Source of the DNA: Promethearchaeota archaeon
Lineage (GTDB): Archaea > Asgardarchaeota > Lokiarchaeia > Sigyniarchaeales > SOKP01
Assembly (NCBI GenBank): GCA_016930515.1
Contig: JAFGGO010000186.1
Location: 1-35,910, forward strand
Length of the DNA: 35,910 nt
Reading direction: 5' to 3'
Position numbers and translations under genes: made by a program. The notes below the pieces were generated by a model that saw nothing but the letters and a program-made list of their open reading frames with translations, searched no databases and had not been told where the DNA came from. Below, one piece after another: positions 6,617 to 28,155 of this stretch. How positions within the stretch are numbered: position 1 is the stretch's first letter; each line of letters opens with the position of its first letter.

Positions 6617-8593
6617 GTGAGCGAATCTTACGAAGTAGATGAGAATCAGACGAGATTTTTAAAAGATTTGGAAACATTATTTGGGAAGAGGATTCCCGTT
6701 AAAGACAAGATCTATTCCATCACTTTCGGCGTTCGAATTAAGGACGGAAATATAGTAGGATTGGGGTTGTATCGCACGGGTTTGAAGAGTCTTCCCGAAT
6801 CAATTTGTAGTTTGGAATATTTGGAAGAATTAGCTCTTGCTTATAATAAGCTAGAGGAATTACCAGAATGCATAGGAAATCTCAAAAATCTTGACGCCCT
6901 TGATCTGAACAAGAACAACCTATCCAAATTACCAGAATCGTTTGGACAGCTAATTAAATTAGACGAGTTGAAAATAGGAGACAACAATCTTGTTTCCCTT
7001 CCCGAATCGTTTGGAAATCTACATAATTTAAGGGAGTTGAATATAAGCGGAAATAAGTTAAATTCTCTTCCAAGTAGTTTTGGTTACCTTAAACGCCTGG
7101 AAAAGCTAAATCTAAGCGGAAATCCCCTCAAGAGCCTCCCCGAATCTCTTGGGAACCTTACTTCTTTAACAAAACTCAATATATCTGGACACCAACTAAA
7201 ACAAATTCCCGAGTCTCTTGTAAATCTAGTTTCTCTTGTGAAGCTAAATATGGACGGAAATACTAGCAAAATTGGTGGTTTAAAAAACCTTCCCGATTCA
7301 TTTGGAAACTTGAAAAGCACTCAAGAATTAAGCTTGCGACTGAATAATTTAACCCGATTACCCGAATCTTTCGGCAATCTCACTAATTTGCAGTCGCTTG
7401 ACCTCGAGGACAATTACATCGGAGCGCTTCCAGATTCGTTTGGAAATTTAAATTCACTTCAACAATTGAACTTGAATTACAACAGGTTATCGACCCTTCC
7501 TGAATCGTTTGGAACGCTTGAATCGCTCCAAGTTCTAAAAATAGACAAAAACACATTAATTTCCCTTCCGGAATCTTTTGGGAATTTATCGACTTTAATT
7601 TCTTTATCGTTAGGAGGAAACCAAATCACAACCCTACCCGAATCGTTTGGAAATTTAAACTCTCTCGAAGACGCTGATCTAAGTTGGAATTGGTTAGAGT
7701 ACCTCCCTGAATCGTTTGGAACCTTAAGAACCCTTAAAAGACTTAATCTGAGAACGAATCACTTGCTAGCTCTCCCAGATGCATTTCGAAACCTTGAAAC
7801 ATTAATAGAACTAGACTTGAGACACAACAAGTTCAACTCAATTCCCGAATCTTTATGGACATTGAATAATCTAAAAGAACTCGAACTTTACGGGAATCCT
7901 TGGATCGGGGAATCAAAAGAGATGGCTTCGAACTCCATGAGCGCAATTTTAGATTTTTGCCGTCAAAGAGCCTCAATTAACGCGTTTATTAGTCACGCAA
8001 TGGCAGACTTCGAAAGATTTCGGATAAAAGATATTTCAGATTATTTAGAAAAACAGGACGAGGTCTATCAAGCTTTTTATTGCGAGGCGGACTTAAAGGG
8101 CAACATCGACGCTTTCATGGAAGAGACAATCCCTAAATGCAAATTATTGTTATTTTTTGCGTCAAGAAAATCTTTATACGATTCCGAGGATTGCTCCCAC
8201 GAATTAGTTCTTGCTCGAAGCCACGACATCCAAATTGTTCCTATTAAGGGAAAAGATGTTGAATGGGAAGAACTATCGTCTGTTGGATTGAAAAGAGAGC
8301 TCGGATTTGAGTTTGACGAATTAAATTTCAACGAATTTTGCGTTCGATTATACGATTACATCAAGAAATTCAAGCGAGAAATCAATTTATTTGACAAGGA
8401 ACAAGCCGAATTGGACAGGCACGGGTTGAATATCAAGAACACCGTCTTGACCTTATTAGAATCGCAAGAGTTTAAAATTAGCGTCAAGAATAACCTCGAG
8501 CGATACAAAGAATTATTTAACCAACTGAATAGAAACGAGATCTCTCAATCGGAGTACTTTCGTAAGTTAGCAGGGATATTTTCAAATAAATAA
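6617..8593 (+). CDS. Leucine-rich repeat protein with C-terminal TIR domain
   Basis: GTG start. About 17 LRRs of 23 aa (LPESFGNLxxLxxLxLxxNxL) capped by GNPW, then AFISHA...LLLFFASRKSLYDSEDCSHEL...IQIVPI (TIR betaA, betaC, alphaC, betaD). No signal peptide, TM or P-loop. Confidence 0.88.
   Translation: MSESYEVDENQTRFLKDLETLFGKRIPVKDKIYSITFGVRIKDGNIVGLGLYRTGLKSLPESICSLEYLEELALAYNKLEELPECIGNLKNLDALDLNKNNLSKLPESFGQLIKLDELKIGDNNLVSLPESFGNLHNLRELNISGNKLNSLPSSFGYLKRLEKLNLSGNPLKSLPESLGNLTSLTKLNISGHQLKQIPESLVNLVSLVKLNMDGNTSKIGGLKNLPDSFGNLKSTQELSLRLNNLTRLPESFGNLTNLQSLDLEDNYIGALPDSFGNLNSLQQLNLNYNRLSTLPESFGTLESLQVLKIDKNTLISLPESFGNLSTLISLSLGGNQITTLPESFGNLNSLEDADLSWNWLEYLPESFGTLRTLKRLNLRTNHLLALPDAFRNLETLIELDLRHNKFNSIPESLWTLNNLKELELYGNPWIGESKEMASNSMSAILDFCRQRASINAFISHAMADFERFRIKDISDYLEKQDEVYQAFYCEADLKGNIDAFMEETIPKCKLLLFFASRKSLYDSEDCSHELVLARSHDIQIVPIKGKDVEWEELSSVGLKRELGFEFDELNFNEFCVRLYDYIKKFKREINLFDKEQAELDRHGLNIKNTVLTLLESQEFKISVKNNLERYKELFNQLNRNEISQSEYFRKLAGIFSNK
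6782..7903 (+). repeat. 69-bp period coding tandem repeat (LRR array)
   Basis: Recurrent CC(C/T/A)GAATCGTTTGGAA-type units. 16 (L/I)Pxx boxes, with one unit lengthened by about 5 aa (DGNTSKIGGL). Confidence 0.85.
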
Positions 8594-9075: not shown

Positions 9076-9618
9076 TTAGAAATTGATTTTGATCTTTGTA
9101 TTTTTTTTTCCTTCCCAAGATTTTTCTAGGAAACTCGAACCAACTGTTTTTTTGTCCGTACAAATTTCAAAAAATCTTTCGTTCCACCCCTTTATTAAAT
9201 AGTAGTAGTTTTCAAAATCGGGTTCTGAATCCGTATATGTTATAACAATCTCGTTGTCTGAAACGAAATTATAATCCATTTGGCTAAAGTTGAAAATCAT
9301 ATTATGAAAGCGTTTATATCTTTCCATTGCCAATTTAACATTTCCCTCAGCAACTATCTGTTTATAAAGGCTTTTCATCATTCCATCACAGAACTGTTTT
9401 CCCCATTTTACAACTATTTCTTTTTTACCTCTTGCTACCACATTAACAATGGCGTTCAAACCCTCTTTATAAGCCGCCAGAGGATACCATGCTGAACTTA
9501 ATATCCTTTGTTGTAAAAATTTTTTTGTTTCATCGGAAAGATTATCATAAGCTCCAGTCTTATTTGCTTTTATTACCTTGACAACTTCTTTAAACATTGA
9601 CCCTTTTACTTGTTTCAT
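9076..9618 (-). CDS. V4R/H-NOX-like small ligand-binding protein (DUF2378-like)
   Basis: VKGSMF...ILSSAWYP...WGKQF...YYLIKGWNERFFEI pattern of H-NOX/V4R-fold proteins. Divergent from the acyl-CoA ligase. GGGAG upstream of the ATG. Confidence 0.55.
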   Translation of the reverse strand: MKQVKGSMFKEVVKVIKANKTGAYDNLSDETKKFLQQRILSSAWYPLAAYKEGLNAIVNVVARGKKEIVVKWGKQFCDGMMKSLYKQIVAEGNVKLAMERYKRFHNMIFNFSQMDYNFVSDNEIVITYTDSEPDFENYYYLIKGWNERFFEICTDKKTVGSSFLEKSWEGKKNTKIKINF

Positions 9619-9676: not shown

Positions 9677-9778
9677 AAAAACTATAAATATATGAACATC
9701 ATTCATTTATACAAACTTAAGTAAATGATTTGTTGTTCATTTATACCAATCTAAGTATATGAATGGTAGTTCATTTAT
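9677..9778. promoter_or_regulatory. Three phased 34-bp units, each with an ATGA(A/T)-N5/6-TTCAT palindrome followed by TTAT; candidate TetR-family operator array
   Basis: TTCATTTAT occurs at 9702, 9736 and 9770 (exact 34-bp period). Units 2 and 3 are 27/34 identical. Confidence 0.7.
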
Positions 9779-10006: not shown

Positions 10007-11794
10007 ATGAAAGAAGAATGGTTCAAACACCCAACGAATCTTGTCGATCTTCTTGAAGATTCTGTGAAAAAATTTGGAAAACGTAACTACTTTGGCACAA
10101 AAAATCCCAACGGTGATTACGAGTGGGTCACCTACGAACAGGTAGGTGCTCGCGTTGATAATCTCCGTGGAGGTTTAGCAAAGATTGGTTTGAAAAAGGG
10201 TGATACTGTAGGAGTTATAATAGATAATAGCGTGGAATGGGCGGTTATCGCATTTGCTACATATGGCATAAACGCTCGATTTGTTCCAATGTATGAAAAA
10301 GAATTAACAAAAGTTTGGCAATACATCGTTAAAGATAGCGGATTGCGATTCTTGTTTGTAGCGGATAATGAGATTTATGAGAAAATAAAAGGATTTAAGG
10401 AAGAAATAGGCACATTAGAAAAGATCTTCCTTATTCGAGGCGAAGGAGAAAGTAGCATGGCAGCTTTGGAAAAATTAGGAGAACAAAATCCAATTCCTTC
10501 GGTGAAACCCCATTGGAGCGATATTGCTGCAATCATTTATACTTCGGGAACCACGGGAGATCCAAAGGGAGTGCTCTTGAGTCACGGGAATTTCACATCC
10601 AATTTCCTATCCTCATATAAATTATTCCCAAATTTTGACGAAAACGATGTTACCTTCGGGATTTTGCCCTGGGCACACGTATTCGGTCAAACATCAGAAT
10701 TGTACTTGAATACGTATCGAGGCATGTCGTGTGGTTTGATGGATACTACCTTAACTTTAATGGAAGACATTGTAAAAGTGAAACCGACAGTATTAATGTC
10801 AGTTCCGAGAGTCTTTAATAACATCTACAACGGCATTCATTTAAAAATGAAGGCTGCGGGTCCTGCCGTGGAAGGTGCGTTTAATAAGGCAAAAGAAACT
10901 GCCAGGATATTAAGAGAAGGAGGAACTGTATCCGAGGAAGATAAAAAAGCAATGGAAGGCATGTTTCAAAACTTGCGCGGAATGTTCGGAGGTCGGCTTA
11001 GATTATCGTCGACGGGAGGTGCCACCATGAATCAGGAAATCGCACAATTTTTCATAGACCTTGGAATTCCTACTTACGATGGATACGGAATGACTGAAAC
11101 TTCTCCTGGTATCACGGCGAATTATCCCTCAGCAAATAAATTAGGTACAGTCGGACGGCCCTACGAAAATGTCACTGTTATCATTGACAAGTCACTCGTA
11201 GGCGAGGATAGCCAAGACGGCGAGATCATCTGTTATGGTCCAGGTGTGATGCAAGGATATCATAACAAGCCAAAAGAAACCGCAGAAGCCATGGTAGAAG
11301 ACCCGGTGTTAGGAAAGGGCGTTCGAACGGGTGATAGAGGATGGATCGATGAGGAAGGATTTTTACACATTACGGGCAGGTTTAAAGAGGAATACAAGCT
11401 CGAAAACGGAAAGTACGTACACCCCGCTTCCATCGAAGAAGCAATCAAGTTAAGCCCGCTCATAGCGAACGTGATGATCTATGGAGACGGTAAGCCTTTT
11501 AATGTCGGCCTCGTGGTTCCAGATCCCGTGATGTTGCCAATATTTGCTAATAAAATAGGAATCACTGAAAAGGATCTTTCAAAGCTGGTGGGAGATCCAA
11601 ATATTCAAAAACTCCTTGAAAATACAATCATGAACCAGTTGAAAGATGGTTTTGGAGGATATGAGATTCCTAAGAAACTCGTATTTACAGCAGAGGACTT
11701 TACTGTTGAAAATGGACTTCTCACGCAAACGATGAAATTAAAACGAAGAAATGTTCTCCAGAAATACGGGGATAAATTGAATGCTCTTTTTTAA
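10007..11794 (+). CDS. fadD: Long-chain fatty acid-CoA ligase (AMP-forming)
   Basis: IIYTSGTTGDPKG, LPWAHVF, SVPRVF, GYGMTETSP, RTGDRG, ITGRFKE, and FTVENGLLTQTMKLKR (C-terminus typical of long-chain ligases). GAGGT SD. Confidence 0.92.
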   Translation: MKEEWFKHPTNLVDLLEDSVKKFGKRNYFGTKNPNGDYEWVTYEQVGARVDNLRGGLAKIGLKKGDTVGVIIDNSVEWAVIAFATYGINARFVPMYEKELTKVWQYIVKDSGLRFLFVADNEIYEKIKGFKEEIGTLEKIFLIRGEGESSMAALEKLGEQNPIPSVKPHWSDIAAIIYTSGTTGDPKGVLLSHGNFTSNFLSSYKLFPNFDENDVTFGILPWAHVFGQTSELYLNTYRGMSCGLMDTTLTLMEDIVKVKPTVLMSVPRVFNNIYNGIHLKMKAAGPAVEGAFNKAKETARILREGGTVSEEDKKAMEGMFQNLRGMFGGRLRLSSTGGATMNQEIAQFFIDLGIPTYDGYGMTETSPGITANYPSANKLGTVGRPYENVTVIIDKSLVGEDSQDGEIICYGPGVMQGYHNKPKETAEAMVEDPVLGKGVRTGDRGWIDEEGFLHITGRFKEEYKLENGKYVHPASIEEAIKLSPLIANVMIYGDGKPFNVGLVVPDPVMLPIFANKIGITEKDLSKLVGDPNIQKLLENTIMNQLKDGFGGYEIPKKLVFTAEDFTVENGLLTQTMKLKRRNVLQKYGDKLNALF

Positions 11795-11845
11795 ATAATC
11801 CTTTTTTTTATATATTTTTAACATTAATTAAAATGGTGATATATT

Positions 11846-13174
11846 ATAGAATCGAAACAAAAAGGTTTAATATTTAAGATCCAAAGAACTGCTACTGACG
11901 ATGGCCCAGGCGTTCGCACGACGATCTTTTTTAATAAATGTCCTCTACATTGTGCATGGTGTGCTAATCCAGAATCAATTCCGAAAACACCTCAGTTACA
12001 ATGGTTGGATCATAAATGCATTGCTTGCAAGAGTTGTATCGATGCTTGCACTCAAGGAGCTTTGTTTTTTGAAGATGATGGCTTGCACATAATAAGGGAA
12101 AAATGCAATAGTTGTGGTGATTGCGAAGAAGCTTGCCCGAGTACGGCATTAACCTTAGTAGGCAAGTGGTGGAGCTCAGAAGATCTCTTTCACGATGTTG
12201 AGAAGGAAAAGATTTTTTTTGATAAGACGAAAGGAGGTATTACCGTTTCTGGGGGCGAACCCACCTTACAATCCGAATTTTTACTGGACTTTTTAAAATT
12301 GTGCAAGGAAAACGGCATTTCTACTGCACTAGACACTTGTGGATACGCTAGCCAACAAATCTATGAAAAATTAATGCCGTATGTTGACATTGTTCTCTTA
12401 GATTTAAAAGTGTTTGATTCTGATAAACACGAACAATTTACGGGCGTCCCTAATCAAACTATTTTGCGAAACGCAGAATGGATTTCGGATTACGTGAATC
12501 AACACGGAAAAAAGATATGGATTAGAACGCCCTTAATACCGAATTATACCGCCACGGACGATAATGTAAGAAAGATTGGAGAATTTATCGTCAATAATTT
12601 AAAAAACATACCAGAACAATGGGATTTACTAAGCTTTAATAAAATGTGTGAAGCTTCGTATTTTAGATTAGGTATATCGTGGATTCTTAAAGACGAACCA
12701 TTAATGACGAAAGAACAAATGGAACATTTTCAGGAAGTTGCCCAGAGCACTGGAGCTAAAAATGTAAAATGGTCTGGTTTAACTAAAAAAGAAGGAACGT
12801 CTCTAGATGAGGTAGAAAAAGAGGAAAAAAGATTATCCGCACAAGACGCTTTCGATCACATGGCAAAGGTGTTTAAAAAGGACGAGGCTTTAAAGTTGGA
12901 AGAAAAAGTCGTCATGCAATACAATGTTAGCGGCCCGGGAGGAGGCACCTGGCAACTTGTCCTCGAAAACGGGGAATATAAGATATCCAAAGGGGAATCA
13001 ATCAAGGAAGTCTCCTGTACGATGAGTTACGACAGTTTAGAGAGTTTCGTGGGGCTCAGGAATGGGACACTTGAGCCCATACAAGCCTTCATGTCAGGCA
13101 AGGTGAAATTCTCCGGAAATCAGGCAATTATTCAAGAAATAGGCAAGATTTTTCCACTTGGTAAGGGAAATTAA
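11846..13174 (+). CDS. Glycyl-radical enzyme activating enzyme (radical SAM, with ferredoxin insert) fused to a C-terminal SCP2 lipid-binding domain; 442 aa from a non-canonical ATA start
   Basis: The frame upstream of the track's start (12005) reads ESKQKGLIFKIQRTATDDGPGVRTTIFFNKCPLHCAWCANPES (CxxxCxxC). Two CxxCxxCxxxC motifs, GGITVSGGEP and LDTCG follow. From about 12833, MQYNVSGPGGGTWQL...GTLEPIQAFMSGKVKFSGN is SCP2. SD GGTGAT at 11835-11840. Confidence 0.9.
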   Translation: MESKQKGLIFKIQRTATDDGPGVRTTIFFNKCPLHCAWCANPESIPKTPQLQWLDHKCIACKSCIDACTQGALFFEDDGLHIIREKCNSCGDCEEACPSTALTLVGKWWSSEDLFHDVEKEKIFFDKTKGGITVSGGEPTLQSEFLLDFLKLCKENGISTALDTCGYASQQIYEKLMPYVDIVLLDLKVFDSDKHEQFTGVPNQTILRNAEWISDYVNQHGKKIWIRTPLIPNYTATDDNVRKIGEFIVNNLKNIPEQWDLLSFNKMCEASYFRLGISWILKDEPLMTKEQMEHFQEVAQSTGAKNVKWSGLTKKEGTSLDEVEKEEKRLSAQDAFDHMAKVFKKDEALKLEEKVVMQYNVSGPGGGTWQLVLENGEYKISKGESIKEVSCTMSYDSLESFVGLRNGTLEPIQAFMSGKVKFSGNQAIIQEIGKIFPLGKGN

Positions 13175-13435: not shown

Positions 13436-15898
13436 TTATATTTTATTAAATTCCGTTCGAGCAATGATATCGTCTTGAAGTTCTTTTCGAAGGTCAATGA
13501 AACGAGCAGAATACCCCGAAACCTTTACTGAGAGATCGGGATATTTTTCAGGATGAGCTTGGGCATCCTTTAAGGTTTCCGTGCCTACGGGGTTTATCTG
13601 AAGATTTCTACCACCTAACTCAAAAAAGGCTTCAACCATCGAAGCCATCTGATCTAATCCTTCTTCGGTTGATATCGTGCTAGGAGAGATTCTAACATTA
13701 AACGTGACTCCATTTGTCAAAAGAGCGTCCTTAGTGGCGTACGCCGCTGAACGGAAAGTCATTGTAAGACCGTTTTTTTCCGTTCCATTGACCGGAGAGG
13801 TTCCATTTGCCACGGGCTCACCATATACCCTTCCATCTGGCGTTGCACCTAACATTTTTCCTTCCATTGTATGCGTTCCAGAAGATACGCAACAAGGGTG
13901 ATAAATTCCATCACCGCCTCTTGCCTTGTATTGTCTCGTGATATCACACACTGTTTCTGCAACCCATTTTGCAAGCGCGTCAACCTTTTCATCGCCATTA
14001 CCGTATTTAGGTGCCTTGTTTTTAAGCATTTCTCGGATTTTTTCAGCGCCCTTAAAATTATTGCGAAGATGATTAACCAGTTCCCCCATTGTAAGTATTT
14101 TCTCTTCGAAGACTGCCCATTGTATCGCTGCTAAGGAATTGGCCACCGTAGCGATGCCTTGTGTACCCATTGGATTGTTGTTATAAATCGCTCCATTTCG
14201 AGTGCAGTCCAATCCTTTCTCTAAACAACCTTCAATGGTAGAAGAAAGCAGCGGTGACGGAAAGTAATCCGCAAACGCTTTATCCTTGAGTTCTGCTTTC
14301 TTCACGGTCAAATCTATCGCGTATTTCAATTGTTCTACAAAGGCATTCTTCACGTCCTCAAGAGAGGTAAAAGTGCTTGGATCGGGAGTTTTAAGGCCGA
14401 TAGATTTCCCTTTTGACATGAGGGTTCTTCCTTCATTTAGCGCCGTCATGAAAACAACTGAGAGCCAGATACCATTTCCTGCCGTATAAGAGAAGTCGTT
14501 TCCAGTACCATGAGGTTCCACGCATCCAACGATCGAATAATTCCTGGCATCTTCTAACGAATATCCCGTTTTATGAAGCTGCGGAATTAATATCTCGTCG
14601 TTATGGAACGCCATTCCCGAGGTATGTCTGAACGCTTCAACTGCTCTTTTAACGAAATCATGGGATGATTTTGAAGATATTCGTATGGATATGGTATTTA
14701 ACAAGCTTTTCACGTTTGATACTGCTTCTAAAAACAAGTAGGACACCTCGTTCGTTGCGTCCATCCCTTGTTTATCCACACCACCTATGGTCACATTGTT
14801 TTGTCCCGCAATGACGACGGTTGAGAGTTTCACCAAATACTCTTCAATTGCCTCGACTGCTTCTGCGTGAGTTAAACGCCCTTCTGCGATATCAGCCCGG
14901 TAGAAGGGAATGAGATATTGGTCCACGCGTCCTTGAGAGAAGATATTACCCTCACCATAGCTCATTTCCATCACGACATTAGTCATCCAAATCGCTTGAA
15001 TTGCTTCCATAAAGGTTCGTGGAGGAAGCGCTGGCACTCTCCTGGCGCGTTGGGCAATATCAATGAGATCCGACCTTCTTTCTTCTGATGCGGTCTTTGA
15101 CATTTCCATTGCCAAGTCTGCGTAGCGATTTGAATAATCGCAAACAGCTTTTGCGGTAATCTGAGCGGATTCAAGAAAATCCTTCCTGTATTCATAGTTC
15201 TCGTCGGTCTCCTTGAGTTTTGAAAGCTGTTCTACGGCCATCTTTTCAATACCCTTGAATCCCATTTGCAAGACACGCGGATATCCTGGAATTGTATGTC
15301 CTTGCATTCCCGCAAATGCTATAGAATTGGATCCCCCTACGGAGAACATGGGAATTTCAGGCACATCATCGTCTTTTTCGTCGATTAATCCTGCTTGTTT
15401 AAAATATTCGTTTTTTCTGGCATCTAAAGTCTTTCCCTTCCAGAAAGGAACGATTTCCTCTTTCATTTCCCTGAGTTCTTCTTCTGAAAGCGGTTTGTAC
15501 CTATCAAAAAGAGAATACATGGTGCGGAAGTACGCCTTGAGCTTTGGATCGATAGTATCATCAAGGAGAAAACCAAATACTCCGACTTTTCTTCCTTGTT
15601 CAATTTCCATGGGATCCGCTCTCACTCGACTCGATTTCTTACCCACGAGTAACTCGGCATCATCGATTCTGATAGGGATGCATCGCAAATATTCCTCCAA
15701 CGATTTAGCTTTTTTCATGCCGGGAGGTGCGTTTTCCATCTGCTTGTATATTCTGGTATAGCATCGTGCTCGTTCAAGATCGTACTCGAAAGGATGAGAT
15801 AGCATCTCGTCTCTAATCTTTCCAACCCTCTCAGAGGGGTTTCCTCGAAGAGGGGCTGCATTAAAATTTTGAACTACCATATGATAATAAACGACCAT
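13436..15898 (-). CDS. Glycyl radical enzyme, PFL2/eliminase-like, substrate unknown
   Basis: Cys loop YSIVGCVEPHG (C459) and Gly loop LSVKVSGYSARF (G795), plus SQGRVDQYL, APKYGN, GATPDGR and LQDDIIART. The true start may be the second ATG at 15880. Confidence 0.92.
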   Translation of the reverse strand: MVVYYHMVVQNFNAAPLRGNPSERVGKIRDEMLSHPFEYDLERARCYTRIYKQMENAPPGMKKAKSLEEYLRCIPIRIDDAELLVGKKSSRVRADPMEIEQGRKVGVFGFLLDDTIDPKLKAYFRTMYSLFDRYKPLSEEELREMKEEIVPFWKGKTLDARKNEYFKQAGLIDEKDDDVPEIPMFSVGGSNSIAFAGMQGHTIPGYPRVLQMGFKGIEKMAVEQLSKLKETDENYEYRKDFLESAQITAKAVCDYSNRYADLAMEMSKTASEERRSDLIDIAQRARRVPALPPRTFMEAIQAIWMTNVVMEMSYGEGNIFSQGRVDQYLIPFYRADIAEGRLTHAEAVEAIEEYLVKLSTVVIAGQNNVTIGGVDKQGMDATNEVSYLFLEAVSNVKSLLNTISIRISSKSSHDFVKRAVEAFRHTSGMAFHNDEILIPQLHKTGYSLEDARNYSIVGCVEPHGTGNDFSYTAGNGIWLSVVFMTALNEGRTLMSKGKSIGLKTPDPSTFTSLEDVKNAFVEQLKYAIDLTVKKAELKDKAFADYFPSPLLSSTIEGCLEKGLDCTRNGAIYNNNPMGTQGIATVANSLAAIQWAVFEEKILTMGELVNHLRNNFKGAEKIREMLKNKAPKYGNGDEKVDALAKWVAETVCDITRQYKARGGDGIYHPCCVSSGTHTMEGKMLGATPDGRVYGEPVANGTSPVNGTEKNGLTMTFRSAAYATKDALLTNGVTFNVRISPSTISTEEGLDQMASMVEAFFELGGRNLQINPVGTETLKDAQAHPEKYPDLSVKVSGYSARFIDLRKELQDDIIARTEFNKI

Positions 15899-16086: not shown

Positions 16087-17769
16087 TTAAACGCTTTTAT
16101 CCAAAGAACGAGGGGGATTAACGCACCATATAGAATGTCCTTCTTCTATTTTGATCTCATGGGGCATTTCTATTTCGCATTCTTTTGTACGCGCATCTGA
16201 AGAGCAACGTGGATTAAAAGCGCACCCTGACGGAGGATTTAAAGGACTGGGAATTTCTCCTTTAATCACATACTTTATTTCTTGGTCGTTCGGATCAATT
16301 TCTGAGCGCGAAGTAAAGAGTGCAATACTATAAGGGTGAGATAGGTTATTAAAGACTTGCTCTGTACTTCCAATTTCTACGAACTTGCCAAGATACATGA
16401 CTGCCACGCGATCTGCGATGTGATTCACAACGGCTAAATTATGAGTGATAAATAAAAATCCATACCCAAATTCCGCTTGTAAATCTTTTAGAAGATTGAG
16501 AATTTGTGCTTGAACGGAAACATCGAGCGCAGATGTGGGCTCGTCTAGAATGATTAAATCGGGATTACAAGCCAACGCTCTTGCTATGACTATTCTCTGC
16601 TTTTGACCACCAGAAAATTCGTGTGCATATCGATCCAGATGTTCGCGCTTCAAAGAGACTTTATCCAACAATCTTAACACGTACTTTCTTATTTCTGCTG
16701 TATTCGTGATACCAAGAAGATTTTTTAGTGGTTCGCCAATAATGTCAACTATTTTCATACGAGGATTCAACGAGGCGTCTGGATCTTGAAATACCATCTG
16801 AATTTTTTGTCTTAAATCACTCGGATATTCTTGAGGAACAGGATCACCCTTGAATAAGATTCCACCGCTTGTTTTTTCTATTAATCCTAAAATGGATTTA
16901 GCGATGGTAGTTTTTCCACATCCGCTTTCTCCTACCAATCCAACCGTTTCTCCCGTTCGAACGCTAAAAGATACGCCGTTTACTGCTTTTATAGCGCCAA
17001 CTTGTCTTTTTAGAACTCCTTTAAAGAGGGGATAATGGATGTGAAGATCTCTTACTTCAAGCAAGGTTTTACCTTTCTCGTGAACGGTTAAATCTCTTAA
17101 TTCTTGGAATTTTATTGTTTTATAAAAAATTTGTTTGATCAATTTTATGGAAACAATCGCAATAATTAAGCTAGTGATGGTATAAAGAAAAACATCATTC
17201 TCGAAAGATTTAGGGTTATAAATAAAAAGATACAATAACACCAAAATCGCTGGGGAAATACTGCTGAATGCGAATGTTCTTCTGAATTTAATTAATTGAA
17301 CTTTATCGCCCCAGTATACTAAAAAAACCGAAAGTCCTAAAAGAAAAATAAATGCAGCAAGAAATTGAAGCTTTATAATGTTTAAATCCGCATCTTCCGT
17401 AATCATTAATATGCTAAAAAGGCCCTGAATTGCGCTTAGAAATAACCAAATCACTAAAAGCACAACTTGGATCGAGCTAAAATACTTAAGCGAATCTAAC
17501 AGGTCTTGTTTGAAAATACTCCAAGAGATCGCAATGGCGGCAATTAAATTCAATGCACAAGGGATTACTTTAAAAAATAATTGGTCGCTAAAATTCAACA
17601 AAAGAATATATATCAAGATTGTATTTAAAAAAAACCATATGATATTGATTACTAACGAAATGACAAATGATCGTTCCCATTTCCTATAAACCAAGTATTT
17701 TTTCGTCATCACGAAACCAACAATGAATAAAATCGCGTTTACAATGATAATTTCAATTATATCAGTCAA
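16087..17769 (-). CDS. oppF: Opp/Dpp-type ABC ATPase (OppF-like) with an N-terminal multi-pass membrane domain
   Basis: GESGCGKT, QMVFQDP, FSGGQKQR, LIILDEPTSALD, FITH, and the C-terminal HPY/Cys motif (GCAFNPRC). The first ~215 aa are about 7 hydrophobic helices. TTG start with GGTGAT SD. Confidence 0.9.
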   Translation of the reverse strand: MTDIIEIIIVNAILFIVGFVMTKKYLVYRKWERSFVISLVINIIWFFLNTILIYILLLNFSDQLFFKVIPCALNLIAAIAISWSIFKQDLLDSLKYFSSIQVVLLVIWLFLSAIQGLFSILMITEDADLNIIKLQFLAAFIFLLGLSVFLVYWGDKVQLIKFRRTFAFSSISPAILVLLYLFIYNPKSFENDVFLYTITSLIIAIVSIKLIKQIFYKTIKFQELRDLTVHEKGKTLLEVRDLHIHYPLFKGVLKRQVGAIKAVNGVSFSVRTGETVGLVGESGCGKTTIAKSILGLIEKTSGGILFKGDPVPQEYPSDLRQKIQMVFQDPDASLNPRMKIVDIIGEPLKNLLGITNTAEIRKYVLRLLDKVSLKREHLDRYAHEFSGGQKQRIVIARALACNPDLIILDEPTSALDVSVQAQILNLLKDLQAEFGYGFLFITHNLAVVNHIADRVAVMYLGKFVEIGSTEQVFNNLSHPYSIALFTSRSEIDPNDQEIKYVIKGEIPSPLNPPSGCAFNPRCSSDARTKECEIEMPHEIKIEEGHSIWCVNPPRSLDKSV

Positions 17770-17797
17770 GATTACAGTATCACCTTTTATTTTGTTA

Positions 17798-19681
17798 TTA
17801 TTTCATATTTTCTGCTTTTTTCTTTGAAATTTCCGCCTGCTCTTTATATTGAGGATCGTATAGGTGGCAAGCCACTACATGTTGTTGATCGATGTGAATC
17901 CTTTTTGGATCAATTGAATCACAAGGTTCGAAACAATATTGACACCTTGGATGAAATCTACAACCTGAAGGAGGATAAATTAGGTTTGGTACCGTTCCAG
18001 GTATCACGGTAAGCTTGTCTTGTTTTTTCCCTACAACTGGAATTGAATTTATCAAGCCTTTTGTGTAGGGATGATATGAATGAGAAAATATTTCTTGAAT
18101 TTTACCATATTCAACAACAGAACCGCTGTACATTACCGCAACATGATCGCACATCTTTGAAATAATTCCGAGATCGTGAGAAATGAACAATATAGTTGTC
18201 TTGTATTTCTGATGGAGCTCTTTCATAAGTTTTAAGATCTGGTTTTGAATCGTAACATCTAAAGCGGTGGTAGGCTCGTCTGCTATCAAGAGTATAGGCC
18301 TACATGCCAAACCCATCGCTATTTGTACCCTTTGTCTCATTCCACCACTTAATTCGTGCGGATATCTTTCAATGATCACTTCGGGATGGGGGATATTTAA
18401 ATCTTTCAACAACTTGATACTCCACTCTCGAGCTATACTATAAATACTTTTATCATCATGTTTGGATGCTTCGACAAGTAGTTCGTCTTGCATGTGCAAC
18501 AAAAAGACTTCAGATATTTGATTGCCAATTTTAAAGACAGGATTCAGTGAATTAAGAGGATCTTGAAAAATCATGGTGATGTCTTTTCCTCGGTATTGTA
18601 ACATTTCCCTTTCCGTCTTTTTTAGCAGATCTTCTCCATTAAAAACAACGCTCCCTTTTTCTATCACACCCGGAGGGCGAATTAATCGAAGAACTGACAA
18701 GGCGCTCACGGATTTTCCACAACCCGTTTCACCTACCAAACCAAGAACTTCCCCTTCACGAATATCAAAAGAAACGCCTTCCAAGGCACGAACAACGCCT
18801 TCTTCCGTGTAAAAGTATGTCGTGAGATCCTGTACATCAAGAATTACTTGTTTATCTTCCGTTGTCATGTTGAACTTGCTCTCGCGTGAGGTTTGCTGTT
18901 GTTCCAAGAAAGATATTGATTGTTGGATCCTTTGGTTGCTTTTTGTTCTAGCTTTAGGCAAAAATATTTTCTTTAAAGATACGATTAACACGGTGGTGTA
19001 GATAACTGCTACAACGCAAAGTAAAACTCGAATGTCTTGTTGAAAGAGAACAATATTAAAGAGTCGTTTTAAATATAATTCAAAAACGATGAGTTGAATA
19101 GCCCAAATTCCATAAGAAACCATCCCTCCTGAATACATTGCGTATTTAAGGGGTTGTTTAGGAATCCGTTTTTCAATTGGAAAAAATTTATTAATCAAGA
19201 TAGTCAATAAAATATTAAATCCAACCGCAAAAGCAGCCCAATAAAGACCTAGCTCGAAAAGGTCGTATTCGTACATGGGAATCCCAAAGAGAGGAATCGT
19301 CAAGAATATACCCGCAATTATCCAAACTATGATTATGAAAAATTTTATTATTCTAAGAAAAGGACTGTTATAAAATTGTTCCTTGGTAATGGAACCAAAT
19401 TTAAAAACGAGTTTCTTATATAGAAAATAGAAGATGGTCAACATGACACCAAACACCAAAAAATCATTAACAAAAAGCACGAAAAAGTAGACATATCCCC
19501 ATAAAGTCTCGAACAAAAACCTAAATTCAATGCTTATTTGTAACAAGATGATTGAACATGCTGCCGAGCATCTTCTGTGCGGAATTTTCGGAATTTGCTT
19601 GTTTTCTGGAATTTGATTGTTGATGATTAACGAAACAATGTATAAAATGAACGCTGCAATTATTGAATCAATAATTGCCAT
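17798..19681 (-). CDS. oppD: Opp/Dpp-type ABC ATPase (OppD-like) with an N-terminal multi-pass membrane domain
   Basis: GETGCGKS, MIFQDP, YPHELSGGMRQR, LLIADEPTTALD, HPYT, GCRFHPRC. The first ~235 aa are about 7 hydrophobic helices. Confidence 0.9.
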   Translation of the reverse strand: MAIIDSIIAAFILYIVSLIINNQIPENKQIPKIPHRRCSAACSIILLQISIEFRFLFETLWGYVYFFVLFVNDFLVFGVMLTIFYFLYKKLVFKFGSITKEQFYNSPFLRIIKFFIIIVWIIAGIFLTIPLFGIPMYEYDLFELGLYWAAFAVGFNILLTILINKFFPIEKRIPKQPLKYAMYSGGMVSYGIWAIQLIVFELYLKRLFNIVLFQQDIRVLLCVVAVIYTTVLIVSLKKIFLPKARTKSNQRIQQSISFLEQQQTSRESKFNMTTEDKQVILDVQDLTTYFYTEEGVVRALEGVSFDIREGEVLGLVGETGCGKSVSALSVLRLIRPPGVIEKGSVVFNGEDLLKKTEREMLQYRGKDITMIFQDPLNSLNPVFKIGNQISEVFLLHMQDELLVEASKHDDKSIYSIAREWSIKLLKDLNIPHPEVIIERYPHELSGGMRQRVQIAMGLACRPILLIADEPTTALDVTIQNQILKLMKELHQKYKTTILFISHDLGIISKMCDHVAVMYSGSVVEYGKIQEIFSHSYHPYTKGLINSIPVVGKKQDKLTVIPGTVPNLIYPPSGCRFHPRCQYCFEPCDSIDPKRIHIDQQHVVACHLYDPQYKEQAEISKKKAENMK

Positions 19682-19745
19682 TCCGTAATTGAATGGATCG
19701 CCAATATAAAATAAAAATGAATTTGAAATTTTAATATCCCTCTTT

Positions 19746-20747
19746 TTATAATTTTAGTCGCGGATCTAAAGCGTCCCGCAAACCATCTCCTAATAATATA
19801 AATCCAATGGCCGTAATCGCAATAAACATTCCTGGAGCGATGGTAGCCATCAAGTTAGTGTAATTTAAATATTTAATTGTAGCAACATATATATCAGTCC
19901 CCCAACTCATAATAGTTGGGTCCGAAAAGCCTATAAATGCAATACCAGCCAGCCCAATTATAGCAACAGCTGCTCCACCAAAAAAAGCGATTAACATTGG
20001 TGAAAGAGTGTTTGGTACGATATGCTTGAACATTAGCTTGAATTTTTTCGCACCACCAACTTTTGCTGCTTGAATGAATTCAAGCTGTTTTACTTGCAAA
20101 ACAAGCGATCGCATTAATCTAATGTTGAACGGAATAAATAATATTCCAAAAATAATTAGTGTTGTAATTAAATCACCACTAATCATTGGCGCAAGAATAA
20201 TGATCAAGATCAAGGTGGGAAAAGCATACATCACATCAACAAAACGCATCATCAAGTAGTCAACAATTTTCCCAAAATAGGCAGAAATCGTTCCCAATAT
20301 GAGTCCCCCTCCAATTGAAATCGTGACGGGAATTATTGCTGTATAAAGGGTTGTTCGTGCGCCCCAAATGATTTTTGCTAACACATCATAACCCTCCTCT
20401 GCCGTTCCGAATGGATGTTCTAACGATGACGGGCTAAATGCTAATTCATATGATGGAAAAGGCGGAAATAGGTCCTGTAATGGATACTTAGTCAACCAAG
20501 GGGCAAAAATTCCCATGTAAACTATAAATAATATCATTATAATCCCAAGAATCGTTAAAGGCTTGAGAAGATGACGGAATAATCGCCTCTTTGATTTTAC
20601 CTTGTCTATTTCCCGTTCCCGTTTGGAAAATTCTGGATCCCGCCATCCAGGGATCAAATAAAACTTTAAAAATCGCAATACTTGGTTTTTCTTTTGATCT
20701 TGGGATTTATTTTTCTCCTCCACTTGTTGTGTAATTTCACTCATCAT
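19746..20747 (-). CDS. oppC: Opp/Dpp-type ABC permease (OppC-like)
   Basis: HPFGTAEEGYDV, EFIQAAKVGGA (EAA loop), KHIVPN, GDGLRDALDPR. Confidence 0.92.
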   Translation of the reverse strand: MMSEITQQVEEKNKSQDQKKNQVLRFLKFYLIPGWRDPEFSKREREIDKVKSKRRLFRHLLKPLTILGIIMILFIVYMGIFAPWLTKYPLQDLFPPFPSYELAFSPSSLEHPFGTAEEGYDVLAKIIWGARTTLYTAIIPVTISIGGGLILGTISAYFGKIVDYLMMRFVDVMYAFPTLILIIILAPMISGDLITTLIIFGILFIPFNIRLMRSLVLQVKQLEFIQAAKVGGAKKFKLMFKHIVPNTLSPMLIAFFGGAAVAIIGLAGIAFIGFSDPTIMSWGTDIYVATIKYLNYTNLMATIAPGMFIAITAIGFILLGDGLRDALDPRLKL

Positions 20748-20779
20748 TTTCGTTCGAATTCATTTTTTTTATTTTTAAT

Positions 20780-21844
20780 TTATTTGTAAGTAATCCTTGG
20801 ATCTATGATTGTATACATGACATCTGTAACTAAATTTCCAATGAGTATTATTATTGTACCAATAACTAAAAGACCATTAATTAGCAAATAATCCCCACCT
20901 AATATTGCCCATACCATAGTACGACCAAATCCATTGTACACAAATGTGACTTCAATGAAGAAAGAACCGAGCAAGGTCGTGGTGGTCCCTCCAATAATAA
21001 CATTGCTAACAGGAAGTAACGCATTGCGAAGAGCATGTTTATTAATGACATCACTTTCTTTAACACCTTTTGCCCGCGCAGTCCTTATATAGTCTTGATC
21101 TAGCACATCGAGCATGCTCGAGCGGGTTTGTCTTGCAATTGTGGCAAGCGAAACGAAAGTAACACACAATGCTGGAAGAATTAAATGCAATATTGTATCC
21201 CATAAAAATATTTGATCGTTATAGATAATACAGTCGATGAGGCGAAATCCAGTTGTAGGTGCGCCATCAGGAATGTTTAGTGCAAATCCTACAGAATTTG
21301 CTTTTTGTGTGGGGAAGTCCAAACTTTCTAGAGTAAAAAGAGGTAAAAGAAAGCCAAAAATAATTTTTACTATCGAACCAATCCAAAAAACTGGAAATCC
21401 TGCACCTAAAATGGCCACTGTCCTAATAGCTATATCTTTTCTAGTATCCTTATGGGTTGACGAAATGAGCCCCAATTTAACCGCAATGATTGGACTGAGA
21501 ATAAGGGGGATGATCATTAATTCTACGGTTCTTGGAAAGACTTGTGAGACAATCTGAAGAACTGGTGTTCCCGTAGTATCGATACCATTGGATATTCCCC
21601 AGTTTCCAGTAAAAAAATCTAAAAAATAATTTCCTAATTGTAGATACCATGGTGTATAATATCCAATCCGTTCTAATTCCATTTCGAGAAGATCAGGATA
21701 ATCCGCAAGGTTATTTGTAAAAGGATTAATAACCATGGCACGCGATAAGAAAAATGTCAATGTTAAGACGATCATTAACATTGGAAGCATCATCAATACT
21801 CTTTTTACGATGTATTTTATCATATTCGTTTGTTTCTTAGCCAA
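20780..21844 (-). CDS. oppB: Opp/Dpp-type ABC permease (OppB-like)
   Basis: YIVKRVL, HLILPAL, TRSSMLDVLDQDYIRTARAKG, KHALRNAL, DVMYTIIDPRI. Confidence 0.92.
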   Translation of the reverse strand: MAKKQTNMIKYIVKRVLMMLPMLMIVLTLTFFLSRAMVINPFTNNLADYPDLLEMELERIGYYTPWYLQLGNYFLDFFTGNWGISNGIDTTGTPVLQIVSQVFPRTVELMIIPLILSPIIAVKLGLISSTHKDTRKDIAIRTVAILGAGFPVFWIGSIVKIIFGFLLPLFTLESLDFPTQKANSVGFALNIPDGAPTTGFRLIDCIIYNDQIFLWDTILHLILPALCVTFVSLATIARQTRSSMLDVLDQDYIRTARAKGVKESDVINKHALRNALLPVSNVIIGGTTTTLLGSFFIEVTFVYNGFGRTMVWAILGGDYLLINGLLVIGTIIILIGNLVTDVMYTIIDPRITYK

Positions 21845-22418
21845 AGATCTTTCCCCGATTTTTTTTATTGTTACTGCAAAATGTTATATTCGTTAGTTTT
21901 CTTTTTTTTTTTAAATTGATGAGTTGTTTGACCTTCATTCCCATTATGGCTCCCGAGAGAGTCGTGATAAATAAAATAAACATGTGCAAATACCCCCTCC
22001 CGTCACCAAATAGATATATCAAGGGTTCAAGAGTAAAGCCAAACATGAGCGAATATAAGATACACGCTTCAACAACAAGAGAAGGAACTAGCCAGATTGA
22101 CGCTTTAATTCCGTAATGCGGAATGTCTTCTTTATAGGTGAGAAAAAAGCATACTACAAATACTAAAAGAATTGGTAAAAAAAACGCTTGTTCATACGCA
22201 TTGTACGTCCAAAACAATATAGTTCTATCCATTTCGGTAAAAGACAAATACTCGTCATTGCCGAGATACATCACCACGTTTGCAACGATTCCATAATAAC
22301 CTAATAATACGATCACATAAGCTAGGAATACGCCTCCTTGTCTTCCCCAATCTATTTTAACGCGCTTGATATCTTGTGCTTCTTTTTGGTGGTTTTTATT
22401 TTTTAATATCTTACCCAT
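21837..22418 (-). CDS. Uncharacterised membrane protein (~4 TM), first gene of the transporter operon
   Basis: Four hydrophobic segments. Overlaps the predicted oppB start by 8 nt, suggesting translational coupling. Confidence 0.7.
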   Translation of the reverse strand: MGKILKNKNHQKEAQDIKRVKIDWGRQGGVFLAYVIVLLGYYGIVANVVMYLGNDEYLSFTEMDRTILFWTYNAYEQAFFLPILLVFVVCFFLTYKEDIPHYGIKASIWLVPSLVVEACILYSLMFGFTLEPLIYLFGDGRGYLHMFILFITTLSGAIMGMKVKQLINLKKKRKLTNITFCSNNKKNRGKIFG

Positions 22419-22570: not shown

Positions 22571-22631
22571 ATGTTTATCATTCGTTAATATTAAACTTTA
22601 GTAAATATGAACGTCATTCATTTATTTAAAG
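22571..22631. promoter_or_regulatory. Operator copy ATGAACGTCATTCATTTAT (22607-22625) plus a degenerate upstream copy (22571-22589)
   Basis: 22605-22625 matches 9690-9710 at 20/21 positions. TTCATTTATTTAAAG is identical at 9770-9784 and 22617-22631. Confidence 0.7.
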
Positions 22632-27483: not shown

Positions 27484-28155
27484 ATGATTGAAAGAAAAAA
27501 AAATACACGGGCGAGAGCTCCCGAAAAAAAGAAGAAACAACTCGATAATATATTAGAAGTAGGTAAAGATCTTTTTATTAGATACGGCGCTCAAGGGTTT
27601 AGCTTGAGACAATTAGCGGATAAATTAAACATGGCTAAATCAAACTTATACAATTACGTGGAGTCTAAAAGAGAATTGTGGTTCGCAATCAGATCTAGAT
27701 ATTTTTTTGAATACGAAAAAGGATTTGCGGATATTTTAAAGACTCATGACAGTGATTATGTGGATTTGGGAGTAAAATGGGCGCAATACTTCCTCGATTT
27801 TGCGGCTGCAGATAGAAAACGATTTGAAATGATGTTTTTCATTCGGGCACCATCGTCAAACAAGACAGGGGCCTACGAAAAAAAATACCGCCCGCTCGAT
27901 CCGATAATAAAAGGAATTAACATAACGCTTCGAGCAGTCGAAGAAGGAAAAAATAAAGAAAAAGATCCCGTTGGGCTTTATTATTACATGTATGCGACCT
28001 GTCTAGGTGCGGCTAAAGTCGAAGCTGACCTAAAATTAACATATAAAATCTTGGATCCCTCGATGATCGAAAAAACTGTTCTAAGTAATAAGCATTTTCG
28101 AGATTTTTTTTTAAAAGAATTCAGAACGCGATTAGAAAAAGCGTATATAACATGA
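27484..28155 (+). CDS. TetR/AcrR family transcriptional regulator
   Basis: ILEVGKDLFIRYGAQGFSLRQLADKLNMAKSNLYNYVESKRELW is a TetR HTH. The C-terminal domain is helical. Confidence 0.92.
   Translation: MIERKKNTRARAPEKKKKQLDNILEVGKDLFIRYGAQGFSLRQLADKLNMAKSNLYNYVESKRELWFAIRSRYFFEYEKGFADILKTHDSDYVDLGVKWAQYFLDFAAADRKRFEMMFFIRAPSSNKTGAYEKKYRPLDPIIKGINITLRAVEEGKNKEKDPVGLYYYMYATCLGAAKVEADLKLTYKILDPSMIEKTVLSNKHFRDFFLKEFRTRLEKAYIT

Follow-up and report, generated by a model that had tools for sequence, protein, structure and literature searches.

What is a lipid-carrier domain doing at the end of an enzyme that activates a glycyl radical enzyme (GRE)? The question is raised by a gene on contig JAFGGO010000186.1 of assembly GCA_016930515.1, whose positions 1 to 35,910 form the stretch of 35,910 nucleotides (nt) analysed here and referred to as the window. 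The host is a Loki-type Asgard archaeon, and the gene encodes a GRE activase that is extended at its C-terminus by an SCP2 lipid-carrier domain and encoded next to a GRE. The protein is a standard three-cluster GRE activase core with a complete SCP2 domain on a flexible tether. The fusion is undescribed, rare and young (genus-level), and it arose by joining a whole stand-alone Asgard SCP2 protein to the C-terminus of an activase. As to its function, we hold with moderate confidence that the SCP2 domain acts as a tethered carrier of hydrophobic ligands, which would serve a co-regulated acyl-CoA-ligase/GRE locus and stand outside the activation chemistry.

The fused gene and its two domains

The fusion is encoded in one continuous frame (11840-13174, plus strand), which has no stop codon between the domains. 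Its parts are as follows:

11840..13174, plus strand: GRE activase-SCP2 fusion gene, an open frame with a probable start at a conserved ATA at 11846; the automatic call begins at TTG 12005
11939..11962, plus strand: radical-SAM motif CPLHCAWC (CX3CX2C), preceded by a DDGPGVRT strand, read directly from the sequence
12011..12151, plus strand: ferredoxin-like insert with two CX2CX2CX3C motifs (auxiliary [4Fe-4S] clusters), Fer4/Fer4_7 matches at amino acids (aa) 58-104
12782..12835, plus strand: charged flexible linker TKKEGTSLDEVEKEEKRL of roughly 20 aa, with 48% identity, dN/dS 0.73 and pLDDT <50 at aa 322-329
12836..13171, plus strand: complete SCP2 domain, Pfam envelope 12878-13153

Read from its N-terminus, the protein passes from KGLIFKIQR and the DDGPG strand through CPLHCAWC, the ferredoxin insert with its eight cysteines (CIACKSCIDAC and CNSCGDCEEAC) and SGGEP to the end of the core near GAKNVKWSG, which is followed by TKKEGTSLDEVEKEEKRL and about 112 residues of SCP2. 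Profile searches recover each part: Radical_SAM is matched with a Pfam E of 2.9e-15, and the NCBIfam model TIGR02494 (PFLE_PFLC, GRE activating protein) covers aa 11-304 with 302.6 bits against a cut-off of 174.35. The named activase equivalogs of NCBIfam (HypD, CutC, HPAD, indoleacetate, sulfopropanediol, BSS) all stay below their cut-offs, the best being NF043069 with 289 bits against 425. On the tail, PF02036 (SCP2) scores 48.4 bits (Pfam E 1.3e-12; gathering threshold 21.3) over aa 347-438, i.e., nt 12878-13153, and 50.8 bits in a genome-wide Pfam scan. A phmmer search of the PDB leads from the core to PFL-AE (1.4e-32) and from the tail to the SCP2 domains of mammalian SCP2 and MFE-2 (1e-5 to 4e-4). 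The first residue of the SCP2 domain is about S333 (nt 12836), and this is precisely the point that follows the initiator methionine in stand-alone homologues (MVTAQD... in these, ...LSAQD... in the fusion), and the fused segment has the full length of a stand-alone SCP2 protein.

The predicted structure shows the same division. In the full-length AlphaFold2 (AF2) model, core and tail are confident, and pLDDT falls below 50 only at aa 1-3, at aa 49-62 and 93-104 within the ferredoxin insert, and at aa 322-329 in the linker. The core model resembles PFL-AE with a TMt of 0.90. Modelled alone, the tail reaches a pLDDT of 92.7 and is predicted to form five strands and five helices; no fold other than SCP2 is among the Foldseek matches listed for it, which extend to E 1.4e-4 (TM 0.65-0.79); they are, in order, alkylsulfatase C-domains (TMq 0.72-0.79), rabbit and human SCP2, MFE-2 SCP2L, UbiJ and archaeal AF1534.

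A sequence-only reading of the window had proposed an SCP2 domain fused to a GRE activase at 12833-13174. The fusion is confirmed by Pfam (1.3e-12), TIGR02494, phmmer and Foldseek, and the coordinates are right, since the domain starts where the stand-alone homologues do. The motifs that had been pointed out (GAKNVKWSG, QYNVSGPGGGTW and AFMSGKVKFSGN) are all in the sequence as quoted, and the three families that an HMM scan was expected to find, SCP2, Radical_SAM and Fer4, are those described above.

The start of the gene is unusual. No ATG, GTG or TTG lies ahead of the essential N-terminal motifs of the activase, which is why automatic calls cut the gene short. At the position of the ATG of the paralogue, the window has TAT and the fused gene of a second genome of the same genus, G003, has TTT. 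An ATA two codons further on is common to the two fused genes (11846 in the window; L009 1501 in G003); it lies 6-7 nt past a GGTG and about 30 nt past a TATA-like box, and the NCBI model of the orthologue P0156 begins at exactly this codon (MESKKKGLIFK). AUA initiation or a leaderless transcript is therefore the probable solution. A frameshift that would connect the frame to an out-of-frame ATG at 11833, by removal of one A from the AAAAA at 11859-11863, was considered and rejected as the main reading, since this ATG is missing from G003 and conservation of the frame sets in at the common ATA.

Recurrence and origin of the fusion

Three species-level lineages share this architecture: the window, G003:C357 (NCBI P0005 and P0156; 81% identical to the window fusion, same genus) and P0004 (84% identical). 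The sequence-only reading had considered that the fusion might turn out to be unique to one genome or interrupted by a stop between the domains; this census and the intact frame show it to be neither. Between the window and G003, synonymous divergence (dS) is saturated at about 2, and dN/dS is 0.042 in the core, 0.043 in the SCP2 domain and 0.73 in the linker. Purifying selection is thus equally strong on core and SCP2 domain, so both have been selectively maintained while fused, and the linker behaves as a spacer. The window genome (G000) has two other activases, which are 33-35% identical; the fused protein, as the sole activase of its clade there, presumably serves the adjacent GRE.

The rarity of the fusion is apparent from searches in both directions. 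With a query spanning the junction, the junction was matched in two of 400 Asgard genomes (G000 and G003), and other activases end where the core ends. Among the 120 best relatives of the activase (of 2186, among 5.8 billion proteins), PF02036 is present on three, which are the three fused forms, and the nearest Atlas clusters are all activases of 303-345 aa free of SCP2. With the SCP2 part as query, an exhaustive HMMER search returned 576 matches, the best of which are stand-alone proteins of 112-124 aa. Partner domains in the 81 multidomain matches are SDR, MaoC hydratase, thiolase, ChsH2/DUF35 and AMP-binding enzymes (the last in 2 of the 81), and a radical-SAM partner is present in none of these 81 relatives. 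Scanning metagenome contigs with the SCP2 part returned no match, and scanning genome contigs with the stand-alone SCP2 protein P0006 returned a single one, from Anaerolineae, with 30% identity. A literature search for SCP2 combined with a glycyl radical found nothing relevant, and a 2026 review of GREs mentions no domain of activases besides the radical-SAM domain and, in some of them, a ferredoxin-like one (PMC13450708). The background assumed by the sequence-only reading, i.e., that activases carry at most a ferredoxin insert and that the usual partners of SCP2 are thiolases, multifunctional beta-oxidation enzymes and alkyl sulfatases, holds in the light of this review and the census of 81 proteins. 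SCP2 genes as such are plentiful in the genus of the window, with 5-14 Pfam matches per genome.

The origin of the SCP2 part can be traced within the Asgard archaea. In a maximum-likelihood tree, the three fused SCP2 domains and the stand-alone P0006 group together (support 95/92), and this group is nested in a clade (100/98) of stand-alone SCP2 copies from G026 and G158; the SCP2 domains of an aldehyde oxidoreductase and of methyltransferase cassettes fall outside the clade of the fused forms. In G026, one SCP2 gene of the clade adjoins a 51% identical orthologue of the acyl-CoA ligase encoded in the window, and another adjoins a glycerophosphodiester phosphodiesterase (GDPD). The closest stand-alone copies by identity are G026:C66 (71%) and G158:C154 (67%), located at L032 1501-1830 (-) and L031 1501-1854 (-). 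Each lacks a start codon and contains a single in-frame TAG, the position of which is conserved; both were therefore set aside as donors and regarded as probable gene fragments, a recoded TAG being the alternative. G001:C160 (L074 5172-6257), a protein of 361 aa of the flavodoxin-like/FMN-reductase type with SCP2 at its C-terminus, was rejected as a counterpart of P0004, since this fusion is unrelated to the activase. Equal reported contig sizes make P0004 and the GRE P0280 (21,012 nt), as well as P0006 and the GRE P0337 (5,740 nt), candidates for co-location.

The partner enzyme and the surrounding locus

The genes and sites that surround the fusion are the following:

13436..15898, minus strand: 820-aa GRE (PFL-like and Gly_radical), convergent with the activase and 261 nt away; Cys loop GCVE, Gly loop VKVSGYS
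10007..11794, plus strand: long-chain acyl-CoA ligase (AMP-binding; FadD11/PRK06187-like), ending 45-51 nt before the activase frame
9076..9618, minus strand: conserved protein of 180 aa, family unassigned, divergent from the ligase; a 79% identical copy has the same place in G003
16087..22418, minus strand: Opp/Dpp-type ABC transporter (two ATPases, two permeases, one small open reading frame (ORF)), upstream of the GRE on the same strand; syntenic in G026
9690..9710, plus strand: operator-like 21-mer in the divergent promoter of ligase and activase
22605..22625, plus strand: second copy of the 21-mer (20/21 identical) in the divergent promoter of ABC transporter and binding protein
27484..28155, plus strand: TetR-family regulator that may bind the palindromic operator; in G013, the GRE/activase pair is flanked by a TetR with 38% identity

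The pairing of GRE and activase is also present in G003. In the partner GRE, the Cys loop VGCVEP aligns to C433/E435 of GDH and QGH aligns to H164, and both are invariant in 55 family members. Among the substrate residues of GDH, the position of D447 is occupied by Ala and the positions of H281/S282 by Asn/Ile; the substrate-specific GRE equivalogs all score below their cut-offs. The Gly loop VKVSGYS has Lys in place of the usual Arg, which is the consensus of the family in 55 Asgard and bacterial homologues. On the basis of these alignments, the GRE bears the marks of the 1,2-eliminase/dehydratase class, i.e., the catalytic Glu of GCVE and the active-site His. Parts of the Asgard literature propose an alkyl-/benzylsuccinate synthase (PMC8163825). 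For this GRE the assignment was rejected in view of the GCVE Cys loop and of matches to CutC, GDH and HypD at 1e-111 to 1e-120, as opposed to 1e-62 to 1e-64 for BSS and MAS. The family (63-88% identical) includes records from Loki-, Thor-, Odin-, Hermod- and Hodarchaeota, all of them annotated as 'PFL family'.

Close relatives of the pair exist without the SCP2 domain. A paralogous locus of G003 encodes a GRE with 85% and an unfused activase with 82% identity to those of the window, followed by a radical-SAM/SPASM protein, a ThiS-like protein and an aldehyde:ferredoxin oxidoreductase of 889 aa that carries two SCP2 domains at its N-terminus. In G026, the GRE is 76% and the unfused activase 75% identical, and the transporter cluster is the same. 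Because activases this similar adjoin GREs this similar without being fused, the SCP2 domain is probably dispensable for radical installation, i.e., an accessory. A further GRE of the same genus, with 994 aa and 26% identity to the partner GRE, has an N-terminal extension that weakly matches SCP2 (hhalign probability 69%, E 4e-5).

SCP2 modules also occur in two recurrent gene cassettes. The first combines the 889-aa oxidoreductase, which carries two SCP2 domains, with a ThiS/MoaD-like protein, a radical-SAM/SPASM protein and an SDR (L020 5491-11876 in G003:C161; L051 2244-7446 in G125:C75); it adjoins the GRE/activase pair in G003 and stands on its own in another family (G125). In the second, an HTH_10 regulator and a methyltransferase of the MttB family are combined with a corrinoid (B12-binding) protein and an SCP2 protein of 110 aa (L064 4153-7521 and 9640-13059; L063 4903-8303; L065 4460-7804; L022 3661-9917), and its version in G026 adds a fusion of FAD amine oxidoreductase and SCP2 as well as a RACo activase. 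The gene content of the second cassette suggests that a hydrophobic methylated substrate is demethylated in a corrinoid-dependent manner.

The order small ORF, ligase, activase-SCP2 and GRE is kept in G003:C357, where the ligase is duplicated; the tandem copies (L039 1376-5201) are 83% and 84% identical to the single ligase of the window. The 21-mer, ATATGAAC(A/G)TCATTCATTTAT, contains an ATGAA-N5-TTCAT palindrome, and its two copies lie 13 kb apart. The 4-Mb genome holds no further mismatch-free copy, and the number expected by chance in the window is 0; units additionally repeat at 9702 and 9736, with a period of 34 nt. That the 21-mer is common to the promoters of ligase and transporter argues for one regulon. 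Both Opp-type ATPases (16087-19681, minus strand) have N-terminal extensions of 260-300 aa, with ABC_tran beginning at aa 264 and aa 300, respectively. Elsewhere in the window, 6617-8593 (plus strand) encodes a soluble leucine-rich-repeat (LRR) protein whose C-terminal region resembles TIR_2 (Pfam 4.5e-5, which does not reach the gathering cut-off).

What the SCP2 domain might do

If the SCP2 domain is a tethered carrier, the activase core would work as usual and use SAM to install the glycyl radical on the 820-aa GRE that converges on its gene, and the SCP2 module would take no part in this. Presumably produced together with the upstream long-chain acyl-CoA ligase, the module might carry or solubilise a fatty acid, an acyl-CoA or a greasy substrate or product of the GRE, and thereby serve the co-regulated ligase/GRE/transporter locus. 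The flexible and unconserved linker suggests a module that acts independently. A role as a carrier is favoured because the other neighbours of this SCP2 clade are lipid enzymes and SCP2 modules recur around GRE loci, and because the partners of related SCP2 domains are enzymes of lipid beta-oxidation, AMP-binding ligases included. The sequence-only reading had suggested that the domain either delivers acyl-CoA or lipid to the GRE or permits radical installation only when lipid is present. The link to lipids or other hydrophobic molecules fits the context (the ligase upstream, the 21-mer, the oxidoreductase with two SCP2 domains in the sister locus); the gating that it also envisaged is weakened by the unfused relatives and the disordered linker.

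Several observations weigh against a carrier that serves the GRE locus. Across the Asgard archaea, most members of the GRE family have neither SCP2 nor ligase nearby, and the GREs of G013 and G026 sit by sugar-type or Opp-type transporters. A lipid substrate is consequently not indicated by the GRE family overall, and only the loci of the window subclade point there. The full-length model has a pTM of only 0.67, so that its arrangement of the two domains is tentative, and, as the gene has no canonical start codon, its expression is deduced from conservation of the sequence. Finally, the SCP2 domain could act independently of the activase, the fusion being a mere product of gene order.

Taken to its end, this last point yields the alternative that survives best, unlikely as we consider it: the SCP2 domain would work with the ligase only, or as a general lipid buffer in the manner of its stand-alone relatives, and would have no consequence for the GRE system. 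A stand-alone SCP2 of the same clade does adjoin the ligase orthologue in G026, AMP-binding-SCP2 fusions do exist (2 of 81), and the fusion is narrow and young in a genus in which SCP2 genes are very numerous (5-14 per genome). However, the fusion has outlasted divergence to 81% amino acid identity and saturated dS without decay of either part, and SCP2 modules recur at GRE loci in varied configurations. Somewhat less probable is a direct hand-over, in which the SCP2 domain docks to the GRE or to the membrane and offers a hydrophobic substrate to the active-site channel of the GRE. The weak SCP2 match in the extension of the 994-aa GRE (hhalign 69%, E 4e-5) and the SCP2 domains of the aldehyde oxidoreductase beside the paralogous GRE are in line with such a role, but the extended GRE and the partner GRE are only 26% identical. 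Moreover, the contact of activases with GREs is transient and catalytic, so that they would be ill placed to feed a substrate stoichiometrically.

A more far-reaching idea, which we consider improbable, is that the genes form a glycyl-radical pathway specific to Asgard archaea and directed at lipids. The SCP2 domain would either make radical installation by the activase dependent on the presence of a greasy substrate or load this substrate. The GRE, an eliminase by type, would break a C-O bond in a lipid-like diol or ether, and the resulting aldehyde or alcohol would be oxidised, as by the SCP2-aldehyde oxidoreductase of the sister locus, and then activated by the long-chain acyl-CoA ligase. 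If true, a function would for the first time be assigned to a GRE of archaea, and a lipid would for the first time be known as the substrate of a GRE; according to the 2026 review, none of the archaeal PFL-like GREs has been assigned a function (PMC13450708).

More doubtful still is lipid-gated activation, in which the SCP2 domain would sense a hydrophobic ligand and the radical would be installed only when this ligand is bound. There is a precedent for substrate-dependent activation, since activation of PFL is stimulated by pyruvate or oxamate; in addition, the SCP2 domain is carried by the activase and neither by the GRE nor by the ligase, and it is under strong purifying selection. However, a linker that is unconserved, relaxed (dN/dS 0.73) and predicted to be disordered is ill suited to a fixed allosteric interface, SCP2-free activases with 75-82% identity accompany the same GRE subfamily, and core residues specific to the fused forms have not been identified. 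An artefact, be it a chimeric assembly or a dead gene, is prompted by the essential motifs without a preceding ATG, GTG or TTG and by the out-of-frame ATG at 11833 that the loss of one A from the run at 11859-11863 would join, but it is largely refuted and very improbable, as an independent genome has the same architecture and the same missing canonical start, its N-terminal codons from the common ATA are 95% identical at the protein level in spite of saturated dS, the NCBI model of P0156 begins at this ATA, and G003 has no equivalent upstream ATG.

The reach of the claim is limited to one genus, to which the fusion is confined. Within it, the activase-SCP2 fusion provides a 'Rosetta stone' clue, which ties one subfamily of a widespread Asgard GRE family to the metabolism of hydrophobic molecules. 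SCP2 modules are best known from eukaryotic peroxisomal enzymes; the fusion adds to the evidence that Asgard archaea place them on many anaerobic enzymes. It also offers reagents for ligand finding, namely a small soluble SCP2 domain and natural pairs of fused and unfused activases that are 82% identical.

Compared with known systems, the core belongs with the GRE activases that have a ferredoxin-like insert (TIGR02494; CutD, the HypD activase and the glycerol-dehydratase activase), with which it shares the DGPG strand, CX3CX2C, the two CX2CX2CX3C motifs, GGEP and the adjacency to a GRE. In contrast to these, it is archaeal, has a non-canonical start, scores below every equivalog cut-off and is followed by about 130 extra C-terminal residues (linker and SCP2). 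The tail has the fold of the C-domain of the alkylsulfatases SdsA1/YjcS, of SCP2L in MFE-2 (HSD17B4) and of the SCPx thiolase (TMq 0.65-0.79), where it is likewise a C-terminal appendage of a catalytic protein. In these enzymes, the SCP2 domain recruits hydrophobic substrates, whereas the host here, a radical-SAM activase, works on substrates (SAM, reductant and the Gly loop of a protein) that are not hydrophobic small molecules. UbiJ and UbiT of ubiquinone biosynthesis share the fold as well (6h6o/6h6p, TM about 0.65) and are non-catalytic lipid carriers for partner enzymes, UbiT in the O2-independent pathway; however, they are separate proteins of a quinone metabolon, and there are no quinone genes here. 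From the same phylum come the Asgard aldehyde:ferredoxin oxidoreductases with two SCP2 domains (G003:C161 and G125:C75; SCP2 37-42% identical), of which the G003 copy lies beside the paralogous GRE/activase pair: there, SCP2 is attached to a redox enzyme that handles small molecules, here to the activase.

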